DNA of 64,000 bases from a virus, in IMG/VR virus record IMGVR_UViG_3300029787_000003, positions 37,218 to 101,217 of that record; one strand, given 5' to 3'. The notes under the pieces are model-generated. The model saw only the letters and a list, made by a program, of their open reading frames with translations. It made no database searches and had not been told where the DNA came from. Position 1 is the first letter of the stretch, and every line of letters begins with the position of its first letter. This document shows positions 38,575 to 49,077 of this stretch, piece after piece. The translations under genes and the position numbers were made by a program.

Positions 38575-38790
38575 ATGGTCAATTTAGACGAAAGATACCA
38601 CGATTACCTTATTAATGGTAAACTTATAAGGATGGATGGTGTAAGCGAAAAATTGATCGGTTATGGTTGGCATTGTGATGGAAACGAGATAAAAGGTTAC
38701 TATCTTACTACAGAGAACCATAAATTATATTATAATACAAACCAAGTATATCAGTACAAAGAAACACTTAAGGAGAAAGTTAATGTCTAA
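38575..38790 (+). CDS. Hypothetical protein, 71 aa
   Basis: LDERYHDY...GYGWHCDG; TATAAT at 38546. Confidence 0.65.
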   Translation: MVNLDERYHDYLINGKLIRMDGVSEKLIGYGWHCDGNEIKGYYLTTENHKLYYNTNQVYQYKETLKEKVNV

Positions 38791-39049
38791 AATGAAACAT
38801 GATTTAGACCATGAAGTATATCTTGATCCTAAGGATCATAAGGAACATATTAATCATGGTATGTTAGAGTATAAAGAATCAGAACTTGAAGAAGTTCATG
38901 CAGATTATGAATACTCTCATAAAGACGAAGTAGTAGAGCCGAATGAAGGTAAGATTAATGATTGGCACACAAGACACGAGGATAAGCATTTAGAAATATA
39001 TTGTGATAACCACCCTGACGCATTTGAATGTCGAGTATATGACGATTAA
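38783..39049 (+). CDS. cp12: CP12 Calvin-cycle inhibitor
   Basis: C-terminal YCDNHPDAFECRVYDD signature. Confidence 0.92.
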   Translation: MSKMKHDLDHEVYLDPKDHKEHINHGMLEYKESELEEVHADYEYSHKDEVVEPNEGKINDWHTRHEDKHLEIYCDNHPDAFECRVYDD

Positions 39050-39070: not shown

Positions 39071-40690
39071 ATGAAAGGAATTAAAATCACAGGTGACGAT
39101 GGTAACAGAACCATTGAATATGAAATGCAAAGTGTAAAGAAGATTACTATAGTTGGTGGTGGTACTGCTGGCTGGATGACTGCTGCTTGGACTGTAAGGA
39201 GAGCAGCCGCTTTTCATCATGCTCATGTAACTTTAATTGATAAAGAAGTACCTGAGAGAATTGGAGTAGGAGAAGCAAATCTTTTAAACTTTAATAAGTT
39301 TATGCACTTTTGTGGTTTTAATGATCCTACTGCATGGATGGATTCTGTAGATGCTACTTATAAAGGTGGTATCATGTATCCTAATTGGGGTAAAGATGGT
39401 AAAACAATATTTCATCCATTTGGTCAATATCACTTCCATACTAAAGCACCTGATGGGAGTGATTTTGTAATACCCTATGGTGATGTTCTATCAGCCAATC
39501 CTGATATTGATTATGCGTCATCATTATATTTCTTTCCCTCTTTGATTAAGGATAAAGTAGAGATAAATGAACTCTCAGCATATTCTGAGCAACTAGATTG
39601 TGGTAAGTATGTTGAATTTTTAATGAAAGAGATTAAAGGTTCAAAAGGATTTACATACATAAATTCTACTGTTGAAAATATAAATTGGGATGGGGAAGAT
39701 ATAACATCACTAGACTTGGCTGATGGTACTAAGAATGAAGCAGATGTATTCATTGACTGTACTGGATTCAAGAGACTGTTATCAGAGAAAAGAGAAATTG
39801 TTGATTTTAGTGGTAGATTATTTGTAAATACTGCGGTTGCTACAAGAGTACAGTATGTTGATAAGGAGAAAGAGTTGCATCCATATACAACTGCTACCTG
39901 TACTGATCATGGATGGATATGGGAAACACCATTGACTACTAGGATAGGAACAGGTCATGTATTTAATAGACATATTACTGACCCTGAGGATGCTAAGGAA
40001 TATTTTGTTAAGCATTGGGATAATAGAATTAAGAAAGAAGATTTAAGAACTATAAATTGGGATCCCTGTAGAATTAGTAAGTTTTGGGAAGGTAATGTAA
40101 TCAACATTGGTCTATCTGGTGGATTCATTGAACCATTAGAAAGTACTGGAATTGGTCTTATTATTAATGGAATAGAACTACTAGAGGATAGTCTGATTGG
40201 TGGGTGTTATGACTACATGGATAGAGACCAATATAATTTAAAGTTGATAAATGACTATGAAACTGCTGTAGATTTCATTAGTATGCACTATGACTATTCA
40301 CATATTCAGAGTCCATTTTGGGATCATGTTAGAAAGACATTTAAGAAGTCTGGATTTCAAAAGATGATGGAGAGTTCTATCTTAGATCCTGATTATCCAA
40401 CATATAAAGTATTGAGACATGGATTCTTTGGTGGTCACAACTGGGCAATTTGGTTACATCAATTAATGCAAAAAGAAGGTGGGTATCCAGCCAAGAAATA
40501 TTTTGATAATAGAAAATGGAGAAGAGAATTAATTGGAAGACTACAAGAAATGAAAAGTAATGCTAATAAAGGATTACCACATCTTAAAGCACTAGAATAT
40601 AAACCAACACTTGATGAGAGAATGATGGGTGAGGAGTCAATTAGAGCATTGGAAGAAGATAATATGAAAAGTGTTAGACAAATGGGATAG
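39071..40690 (+). CDS. Tryptophan halogenase-like flavoprotein (PrnA family)
   Basis: IVGGGTAGW, IGVGE, DATYKGGI, FIDCTGF, GWIWETPL, FIEPLESTG. Confidence 0.9.
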   Translation: MKGIKITGDDGNRTIEYEMQSVKKITIVGGGTAGWMTAAWTVRRAAAFHHAHVTLIDKEVPERIGVGEANLLNFNKFMHFCGFNDPTAWMDSVDATYKGGIMYPNWGKDGKTIFHPFGQYHFHTKAPDGSDFVIPYGDVLSANPDIDYASSLYFFPSLIKDKVEINELSAYSEQLDCGKYVEFLMKEIKGSKGFTYINSTVENINWDGEDITSLDLADGTKNEADVFIDCTGFKRLLSEKREIVDFSGRLFVNTAVATRVQYVDKEKELHPYTTATCTDHGWIWETPLTTRIGTGHVFNRHITDPEDAKEYFVKHWDNRIKKEDLRTINWDPCRISKFWEGNVINIGLSGGFIEPLESTGIGLIINGIELLEDSLIGGCYDYMDRDQYNLKLINDYETAVDFISMHYDYSHIQSPFWDHVRKTFKKSGFQKMMESSILDPDYPTYKVLRHGFFGGHNWAIWLHQLMQKEGGYPAKKYFDNRKWRRELIGRLQEMKSNANKGLPHLKALEYKPTLDERMMGEESIRALEEDNMKSVRQMG

Positions 40691-40798: not shown

Positions 40799-41770
40799 AT
40801 GATCGAGATAAAGCAACAGCCTGCTGAGAAGATTGGAGATATAGAGCAAGATTTTGATTTAATATACATGGATCCACCTTTCGGATTACAACGTGAGTTT
40901 ACTATGGTCGAGAAAGATGGAGAGAAGAAGGGATTTGCTGATCAATGGGATTCATTTGATGATTACATGGTGTGGTATGCAAATATTATTATAAAATCAT
41001 ATTATAAGTTAAAGAAGGATGGATGGTTATACTTACATAATAACTTTATCAACAATGCTTTAGTATTATCTAAAGTAACTGCTGAAATTCGTAATAATTT
41101 CTATACAAATATATCATGGAAGAGATCAGGGCCTAAGAATAATATTAAGAATGGATGGGGGAATATTGTAGATTCTATCATGGTTATTCAGAAAGGCAAC
41201 CCCTATTTTGAAGTTGAATATACATCACTAGACCCAATATATGAAGCAAATAGTTTTAAAAATAAGGATGAGAATGGATTTTATGCACTAGCAAAAGTTA
41301 CAGGAGAGAAGAGCAGGCCGTGTGCTAAGTATGAGTATAAGGGTTATAACCCTGAGTATGGATTCAGAATAACACAAGAGAAACTCAAAGGACTAGACGA
41401 TCAGAACTTACTACATTATGGTAAGAATATGTTATACAAAAAGATATACTCTCATGAGTCTAAGGGAGTTCCAGTTCAGAACTTCTGGGATGATGTATAT
41501 TTTATATCGAGGAGTGAGAAGAACAAGAGAAAGTATCCTACTCAGAAACCTCTAAAACTATTAGAAAGAATAATCAAATCAAGTTGCCCACCTGACGGAT
41601 GGGTACTGGATCCTTTTTGTGGATCAGGAACAACTGCTATAGCATCTTTGAACCTTGATAGAAATTGTATCACAACTGACGTGAACCCTGACGCAATCAA
41701 GATGGCCGATGTGGCAGTAAAAGAACTGTCACAAGAGAAGTTGAATCCTCTGGTTGAGGTGCTATATTAA
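40799..41770 (+). CDS. DNA adenine methyltransferase, beta class
   Basis: YMDPPF, ISWKR, YPTQKPLKLLERII, DPFCGSGTT. Confidence 0.92.
   Translation: MIEIKQQPAEKIGDIEQDFDLIYMDPPFGLQREFTMVEKDGEKKGFADQWDSFDDYMVWYANIIIKSYYKLKKDGWLYLHNNFINNALVLSKVTAEIRNNFYTNISWKRSGPKNNIKNGWGNIVDSIMVIQKGNPYFEVEYTSLDPIYEANSFKNKDENGFYALAKVTGEKSRPCAKYEYKGYNPEYGFRITQEKLKGLDDQNLLHYGKNMLYKKIYSHESKGVPVQNFWDDVYFISRSEKNKRKYPTQKPLKLLERIIKSSCPPDGWVLDPFCGSGTTAIASLNLDRNCITTDVNPDAIKMADVAVKELSQEKLNPLVEVLY
41711..41768 (+). promoter_or_regulatory. Palindrome-box promoter module 3
   Basis: GTGGCAG-TAAAAGAA-CTGTCAC, 30 nt, TATATT; TTGAAT at 41741. Confidence 0.7.
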
Positions 41771-41772
41771 TA

Positions 41773-41858
41773 GTGGGAAACAAAACAGGCAAGGATCTAT
41801 GGTTGTCTTTGTTCAGCAAAGAAATTACGTCCTGTAAGTCCGAGTTTTTGTTTCTCGC
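41773..41858 (+). ncRNA. Candidate structured leader RNA
   Basis: Closing stem GGGAAACAAAA/TTTTGTTTCTC; internal hairpin TCTTTG-TTCAG-CAAAGA. Confidence 0.45.
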
Positions 41859-41879: not shown

Positions 41880-42323
41880 ATGGCCACAAGATCAAGAATT
41901 GGTTACGTCTTACCTGACGATTCAATAGTATCAGTTTACCACCATTGGGATGGATACCCTGAGTGGTTAGGTGTTACTCTTAACAGAGAATACAATACAG
42001 AAGAGAAAGTAAGAAAACTCATTGATGGTGGTAACATGAGTAATTGTTGGTCAGATAGTAAATTTAATACAGAAACAAAAGAATTTGATAAGGTAGAACC
42101 TCATGTAAATTATTATGATGGGGATGATGAGAGACCAGAAATATCAGCAACCAGACAAGAGGCTGCTGAGTTGAATTGGGATGCTGAGTTCATCTATTTC
42201 TTTATGAATGGAAATTGGGAATGTTTCTCTATAAACAACAAATTGGATAAAGAGGGTACAGTAGTAGAGTCCACCATACTACCAGTAGAAATACCAGCAG
42301 GGGATGTTGCAGATGACAGTTAA
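41880..42323 (+). CDS. Conserved phage hypothetical protein
   Basis: MATRSRIG...SVYHHWDGYPEWLG...EFIYFF. Confidence 0.75.
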   Translation: MATRSRIGYVLPDDSIVSVYHHWDGYPEWLGVTLNREYNTEEKVRKLIDGGNMSNCWSDSKFNTETKEFDKVEPHVNYYDGDDERPEISATRQEAAELNWDAEFIYFFMNGNWECFSINNKLDKEGTVVESTILPVEIPAGDVADDS

Positions 42324-42370
42324 ATAACTGTCACATCCGATATTGTACTATGATGTAAAACTGCTATAAT
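42313..42370 (+). promoter_or_regulatory. Palindrome-box promoter module 4
   Basis: ATGACAG-TTAAATAA-CTGTCAC, 30 nt, TATAAT. Confidence 0.75.
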
Positions 42371-42376
42371 ACAGTT

Positions 42377-42523
42377 GTTGAGAAGGATAAGACTTTCAAG
42401 GTTGCGTTCAGTCGCATTTAAGTCGAACTTAAGCACCTTTTCAACACCTTTTACTGGGCATTACCACCCTCAACCGAGAACGTCACAGTACGCCACCCTC
42501 AACCGAGACCATGTAAGCCCCAG
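42377..42523 (+). ncRNA. Candidate two-domain structured RNA containing a duplicated 16-mer
   Basis: GTTGAGAAGG/CCTTTTCAAC multibranch domain; CTGGGC.TTAC/GTAA.GCCCCAG stem enclosing CCACCCTCAACCGAGA x2. Confidence 0.55.
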
Positions 42524-42551
42524 ACCCTTTTGTAAACCTGACTATTTTATT

Positions 42552-42665
42552 ATGTCTCAAACTTTCGCTGAGTTCCTACTCGACAACGCATCTACAGGAA
42601 ATGAGATTCTCTCAGTTCTTGATGATATTGTAGAGGTAACTGAAACAGGAGGAACTGACCTATAG
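42552..42665 (+). CDS. Acidic micropeptide, 37 aa (MSQTFAEFLLDNAS...)
   Basis: Last 37 codons of track ORF 42375, beginning just after the RNA element. Confidence 0.55.
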   Translation: MSQTFAEFLLDNASTGNEILSVLDDIVEVTETGGTDL

Positions 42666-42722
42666 GCCAGTTAAATAAGTGGAACAAGGCCCCTACACAG
42701 GGGTCTTGTTTTCTATTATAAT
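42664..42722 (+). promoter_or_regulatory. Palindrome-box promoter module 5 with internal hairpin
   Basis: AGGCCAG-TTAAATAA-GTGGAAC, 31 nt, TATAAT; hairpin at 42683-42710. Confidence 0.7.
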
Positions 42723-48995: not shown

Positions 48996-49077
48996 TGTGG
49001 CAGGATCTATCGTAGTTATGACACGGTTGGATTTATCCGTAAAAGATACCGTTAGGATCATAGAACGTAAGACCACA
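48996..49077 (+). ncRNA. Candidate structured leader RNA
   Basis: TGTGG/CCACA, TCTAT/ATAGA and ACGGT/ACCGT nested stems. Confidence 0.4.

Follow-up and report, generated by a model that had tools for sequence, protein, structure and literature searches.

Modular, gene-independent RNA motifs behind early promoters of marine T4-like cyanophages

The stretch at positions 42371–42551 lies between an early promoter and the gene of a 37-aa peptide, and its predicted folding raises the question of whether it encodes a real structured RNA and, if so, whether that RNA serves the peptide gene. The window, which is the whole 64,000-nt stretch analysed here, is part of a 152-kb virus record (genome 73% complete). 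The neighbouring genes match those of Prochlorococcus and Synechococcus T4-like phages, which identifies the window as early-region DNA of a marine T4-like cyanophage. The structured element sits amid small early genes, 3′ of one of several repeated early-promoter sites. As an earlier note based on the sequence had proposed, the promoter lies directly 5′ of the element on the plus strand (42317–42370); repeat search and promoter listing resolve it into an upstream site of repeat family D1 (42317–35) and a −10 hexamer (42365–70). A sigma-70 scan misses this promoter, which has no −35 box. Judging from these signals, transcription would start near 42377. Most early promoters of this genome are followed by short, plain leaders without modules. 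The flanking genes include a CP12 gene (38783–39049; PF02672) and a DNA methyltransferase gene (40799–41770), together with a 539-aa flavin-enzyme-like ORF (39071–40690), assigned from its sequence only. A search with the CP12 protein for a host relative returned phage proteins only, and no tRNA was found in the window.

All of the stems, hairpins and 16-mers listed in the earlier note are present in the sequence, and compensatory changes in homologues support the folds of the two modules described below. The folding energy has a z of −1.5 for 42371–42551 and of −2.4 for 42377–42523. By itself, folding energy is weak evidence, and it is conservation in homologues and covariation that carry the case. 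The covariation counts are phylogenetically non-independent and inflated by relatedness, yet several independent pair types occur at each position. The domains were found apart, in either order and within other stems, and the idea of one two-domain RNA acting as a unit was accordingly abandoned. The region 42377–42523 is instead composed of two independent RNA modules, A and C, each closed by a shared small internal loop, K. It is a conserved, folded and undescribed RNA built of mix-and-match parts.

Unit 1 (42377–42445), defined by sequence and covariation, is bounded by a 10-bp closing stem (42377–86 with 42436–45) with nine Watson-Crick pairs and one G·U pair. The closing stem is replaceable: at least five other stems enclose the same core in relatives, and the five outer pairs show two-sided changes at all five positions. 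The enclosed module A (42387–42435, or 42388–42435 in a narrower delimitation) recurs in 63 IMG/VR loci and in the phages P-HM2, P-SSM4 and MbCM1, with differing closing stems. Covariation defines an inverted K loop (42387–94 with 42432–35) and a variable stem-loop (42403–06/42413–16), while alignment A2 defines an invariant strand (42395–402) and a near-invariant strand (42417–31). In the K loop, positions 42391 and 42434 co-vary with zero exceptions (G-C 23 vs A-U 6), and in one lineage the pair 42394/42432 is C-G in place of U-A. The inner 4-bp stem takes 10 sequence forms, is 100% paired and shows compensatory changes at four of four pairs; it tolerates anything from a 6-nt loop up to inserts of about 80 nt, the inserts being other modules. 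The structure built from the covarying pairs outscores all 500 shuffles and all slid controls. The minimum-energy helix 42391–95/42420–24 was rejected, being broken at two pairs in 7 of 30 sequences, with no compensation and no covariation.

The two hairpins that the earlier note had drawn in domain 1 are present at 42403–06/42413–16 and 42418–22/42428–32. The latter is 95% paired, has zero compensatory changes and is compatible with the module A fold; as a third small hairpin in the strand 42417–31, it would possibly make module A a three-way junction. The leaders of two loci (L312 and L321) contain a unit with the 3′ strand of A and a different 5′ strand, of which sister versions swap the small hairpin, which suggests that module A is one member of a family of three-way junctions. 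At the site matching 42418–22/42428–32, a small hairpin is retained in a related unit whose 5′ strand differs. Module A also occurs in CAZJXE010000393.1 (L222), a 1-kb cyanophage fragment binned in a Weeksellaceae genome of GTDB as a contamination.

Unit 2 (42454–42523) likewise rests on sequence and covariation. Its stem is present at 42454–64/42513–23, as first drawn, and carries a K loop (42457–60/42513–20) around a doubled module C (42461–42512; alignment A1 and covariation). The two exact 16-mers were confirmed at 42464–79 and 42493–508; allowing up to three mismatches, two matches were found against 0.12 expected, and no shuffle reached two. Module C recurs in 23 contexts, P-HM2 among them, and the 16-mer pair occurs with the same 29-nt spacing in other phages, within the stem that here closes the unit at 41773–41858. 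In more distant versions of C, what remains of the 16-mers is the first 13 letters on the 5′ side and the last nine letters on the 3′ side, and a covarying stem in which various inserts occur links the two strands. Given this arrangement, the fold of module C is a rod with a symmetric 4×4 loop. In alignment A1, the rod comprises the pairs 42469–71/42505–07 and 42476–78/42498–500, the 4×4 loop 42472–75/42501–04 and a central hairpin at 42481–83/42489–91, all on the plus strand. The rod model is 92.5% paired with 12 compensatory cells, a result reached by 0 of 500 shuffles, whereas the two identical hairpin loops envisaged in the earlier note are 72.5% paired and show no compensatory change. The exact repeat is therefore best taken as two copies of C placed head to head in a two-fold symmetric rod, of which the two 16-mers form the two strands. 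For the window sequence taken singly, the computed ensemble holds 0.40 rod vs 0.57 hairpins. A match of the C model in S-SSM7 sits in a coding end and was taken as chance, and a loose repeat pattern run over viral contigs was discarded because its matches were mostly coding repeats.

The complementarities between the repeats and domain 1, which had suggested an inter-domain pseudoknot or alternative folds, are real in this sequence and are not conserved. Module A is lacking within 250 nt in 14 of the 23 C contexts, and where A is present, the partner letters after its invariant strand vary.

In the K loop, a small 4×1 internal loop adjoins a G-C pair, after which come a bulge and two further pairs. 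K is common to both units of 42377–42523, to a unit at 41773 and to a unit at 48999; it faces one way where it closes B and C, and either way where it closes A, and each of the three pairs shows compensatory changes. The unit at 41773–41858 on the plus strand, identified from homologues, promoter listing and covariation, lies at the preceding early promoter and consists of module B closed by K, within a stem that elsewhere encloses C or A. Module B is conserved in P-SSM2, P-SSM5 and many viral contigs; its inner stems covary, and it has no Rfam match. The unit at 48999–49074, also on the plus strand and found by promoter listing, is a third K-closed leader unit. A further K-closed unit in S-SSM7 (L158:1465–1512; also in L327 and L349) contains eight letters of the abiF loop and has no Rfam abiF match. 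At least eight further conserved RNA modules (D, E, F, G, H, I, J, M, N and others) were observed at L157:1840–2130 and 2650–2950 in P-SSM2 and in the leaders L307–L368, none of them matching Rfam. One long unit ends in a T-arm-like hairpin.

Turning to the downstream gene, the 37-aa ORF expected directly behind the element is present at 42552–42665 on the plus strand (37 codons, an acidic peptide), preceded by a pyrimidine linker and an A/U-rich initiation region (42524–42551) recognised by comparison with other phages. Peptide homologues are annotated in P-SSM7 and P-SSM2. The peptide alignment A3 has 88% column identity, and pairwise codon differences are 7993 synonymous vs 3588 non-synonymous; by this measure the gene is a real, conserved one. 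The peptide has no match among PHROG, Pfam, PDB or Atlas entries. To guard against bias, leaders were gathered through the peptide coding sequence alone, with a pattern that favours the commoner N-terminal variant. Among 41 distinct leaders, of about 70 to 650 nt, 36 carry lettered modules in varying order and nesting, none of them A or C; the remaining five contain other closed units, seen by eye. Module D is present in 24–28 of the 41 leaders. The linker and initiation motif precedes the peptide gene in other phages whatever modules lie upstream, and is not tied to A or C. The peptide gene is thus the fixed 3′ end of an RNA locus that is itself hypervariable, rather than a gene governed by a switch of its own.

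The downstream families are correspondingly diverse: 26 unrelated protein families follow A and nine follow C, with a distance from module to next start of 16–290 nt. Counting adjacent and nested placements, the 18 motif strands defined from these loci show 28 distinct orders; F can enclose A, and A can enclose F or G. Cultured phages differ in their content, A being present in P-HM2 and P-SSM4 and absent from P-SSM2, S-SSM7 and P-SSM7. The P-HM2 array lies near 41397–41535 of GU075905. These data reveal a modular RNA system of marine T4-like cyanophages, made of short two-stranded motifs with invariant loops. These motifs (A, B, C and no fewer than eight others) stack along helices, nest in each other's variable stems, are closed by exchangeable stems, often with K, and form arrays directly behind a subset of early promoters. 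They are conserved plus-strand RNA motifs that are modular, gene-independent and accessory.

As to the strand, the supported helices contain G·U 9 times vs A·C once when read on the plus strand (p 0.02, the cases not being independent), and module starts lie mostly 13–36 nt behind a rightward −10 hexamer. Read on the minus strand, domain 2 forms a G·U-rich rod (−26.2 vs −13.2 kcal/mol, with equal z). A −10-like hexamer on that strand, inside the peptide gene at 42632–27, is found in 29 of 45 peptide genes vs about 19% from codon usage. The same hexamer (42627–42632) stands at mirror distance from a near-palindromic early site (42668–42722) behind the peptide gene, and a leftward transcript from it would be antisense to the array. 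The stretch is present in marine RNA libraries of several studies, and in the four examined, contigs cover it; this RNA evidence consists of contigs without strand, ends or level, to which DNA may contribute, with small-share runs left out. In metatranscriptome contigs, the A core enters other scaffolds exactly at 42387/42435 and 42395/42431. One such contig joins opposite strands at 42376/42447, the ends of the domain 1 stem, which is probably a fold-back artefact at the hairpin.

We compared the element with known RNA families. A cmscan-type search of Rfam 15 at gathering score, covering the window and 30 related loci, returned no family, and the element by itself matched none at E up to 10. 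The same covariance-model search on S-CREM1, used as a positive control, recovered manA at 96.6, wcaG at 92.7 and abiF at 52.2 bits, which gives the negative result its meaning. The suggestion that the element may be a member of a described cyanophage motif such as manA was not borne out, with no manA match in the window at the 55.2-bit threshold, none locally at E up to 10 and none genome-wide; manA (RF01745) has a multi-stem consensus of about 190 nt, often beside tRNAs, unlike 42377–42523. The wcaG model gave no match either. For abiF (RF03085), no match of at least 37 bits was found in the genome or the related loci; this family needs a hairpin with an 11-nt loop, and the rod is favoured here. 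No Rfam antitoxin family matches. Exact patterns of A and of doubled C, run against 185,579 prokaryote genomes of GTDB, found one phage contaminant and one chance match only, and tRNA-like CCA ends showed no excess after closing stems. A TIGR-type guide array was also dismissed, the loops being invariant rather than variable spacers, and the 73%-complete genome holding no PF01798 (Nop domain). The literature contained no description of these motifs or arrays; a prior listing is possible in Fremin 2023 (10,000 viral candidates) or Doron 2016.

What might such arrays do? Our leading reading, held tentatively, is that they are a combinatorial set of protein-binding RNA decoys acting in trans. Host RNA polymerase would transcribe the array within the opening minutes of infection. 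The closed units would fold independently; cleavage at the pyrimidine linkers may release them, or they may persist as part of the leader. Every invariant loop would be a putative binding site for a particular protein, and the symmetric doubled C would fit a homodimer. With invariant loops as protein-binding sites on self-folding units, the RNAs would serve in trans as decoys for, or inhibitors of, host RNA-binding proteins; the most plausible targets are defence nucleases or toxins that an RNA ordinarily holds. Recombination would let phages acquire, drop and duplicate modules in step with variation among host strains. The protein-sponge role raised in the earlier note thus survives as the leading reading, with a rod in place of its two identical hairpin loops. 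Covariation in stems, invariant loops, free combination, gene independence, accessory distribution and the pseudo-ToxI and abiF precedents make decoys quite possible, if still short of probable, and we infer that the variety, patchiness, duplication and early timing of the modules resemble counter-defence cargo. Against this reading, a mimic should have a host counterpart and the exact-pattern search gave none, although a diverged one is possible; moreover, all units lie 5′ of genes on the same transcript, like cis elements.

The latter observation would suit the main rival, a cis-acting leader that aids its own early transcript, through put-like antitermination by RNA polymerase binding, protection from RNase E/J by pairing of the 5′ end, RNase III-type processing or ribosome recruitment. 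The modules lie at the extreme 5′ end of early transcripts with the first base paired, a general cis role is also compatible with independence from gene identity, and there is a precedent in the HK022 put RNA (PMC9378689). However, the modules are absent from most early promoters and their content differs between phages, and a cis role does not call for ten or more unrelated invariant motifs that change order and nest in one another; we regard this role as unlikely. A riboswitch or small-molecule aptamer for the 37-aa peptide, or an aptamer that sequesters a signalling nucleotide (including in trans), is improbable. The large invariant loops between covarying stems do resemble an aptamer core; nevertheless, the riboswitch-like control first proposed is contradicted by the numbers of unrelated families behind A and C, and independently found peptide genes carry other modules. 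No downstream gene class is consistent, A preceding the peptide in 3 of 64 contexts, and the distance varies. An expression platform is equally absent, with no plus-strand terminator called and no constant start-site overlap, and the pseudoknot is not conserved.

Two further explanations concern sequence identity and strand. That the modules mimic, or serve as antisense guides to, host rRNA, tRNA or mRNA finds some encouragement in E. coli, where 10 nt of the 16-mer match 23S 224–233 and 9 nt of A match 16S. We nonetheless find it hard to credit: eight matches in 156 tests are at chance level, 8–10-mers are in no excess over shuffles in 37 non-redundant leaders set against E. coli and Leptolyngbya rRNA (a somewhat conservative control), the 23S match is missing from the cyanobacterial sequence, and an anticodon-like reading of 42393–99 is broken by a compensatory change. 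The minus-strand rod and hexamer described above would fit an RNA transcribed from a leftward promoter inside the peptide gene; alternatively, the hairpins could act as DNA, as recombination sites. Both are very improbable, given the excess of G·U over A·C on the plus strand, the position of A and C mostly behind rightward promoters and before other genes, and the bulged, looped invariant motifs with wobble pairs, which suit RNA.

Several known systems share features with the arrays. The orphan structured cyanophage RNAs manA (RF01745), wcaG (RF01761) and PhotoRC-II (Weinberg 2010, PMC2864571) are likewise covarying RNAs of T4-like cyanophages and marine metagenomes that lie 5′ of genes, whereas they have fixed architectures of 100–200 nt and the small motifs described here recombine and nest behind early promoters. 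The pseudo-ToxI of phage phiTE is a non-coding RNA whose repeat units are gained or multiplied by recombination (Blower 2012, PMC3475682). It repeats, in tandem, a single antitoxin mimic whose host counterpart is known, and it forms pseudoknots; in contrast, we find many unrelated motifs, rods and no counterpart. The AbiF toxin, a homodimeric nuclease, is held by tandem RNA motifs (PMC12373285), and an orphan abiF-family RNA occurs in cyanophage S-CREM1 (PMC9964418). The abiF RNA is similarly a small stem with an internal loop used in tandem, and its loop shares six letters with module C, which is not significant; on the other hand, abiF forms a hairpin loop and module C a two-stranded rod. 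The put RNA of HK022 is a nascent, structured RNA that comes immediately after early promoters, whatever gene follows. The modules sit in the same place, but put is one fixed element at both HK022 early promoters, while the modules occupy a minority of promoters with variable content. Finally, PeSL cassettes of T4-type phages are repeated units of early promoter and stem-loop that shuffle small early genes (PMC2839356, PMC4122927). PeSLs lie upstream of the start site as promoter or terminator signals, whereas the modules are transcribed cargo with their own covariation. By analogy, PeSL-type cassettes are a likely means of moving these arrays, and whole units may travel with the repeated promoter cassettes, as has been described for PeSLs (PMC2839356).

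Stackable internal-loop motifs, a clamp that works in two orientations, nesting and hypervariable arrays at a fixed anchor gene together point to a modular RNA toolkit. To our knowledge, few examples of RNA-based counter-defence have been described, and in each a single RNA acts on a single target. In its boldest form, which we consider somewhat unlikely, our decoy reading holds that the ocean's most abundant myoviruses carry a combinatorial, recombining repertoire of at least ten undescribed aptamer-like modules, assembled into nested arrays at early promoters, each of which neutralises its own defence or regulatory protein of the host. Because the modules are present in the cultured phage–host pairs P-HM2/MED4 and P-SSM2 and P-SSM4 with NATL strains, they are directly testable. 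Even if they are cis elements, at least three covariation-supported motifs (A, C and K) and about eight candidates absent from Rfam have come to light. If the decoy reading is true in its boldest form, the arrays would be the RNA counterpart of anti-defence protein clusters, and would bear on the intracellular resistance of picocyanobacteria to T4-like phages and on how broad-host-range phages evade it.
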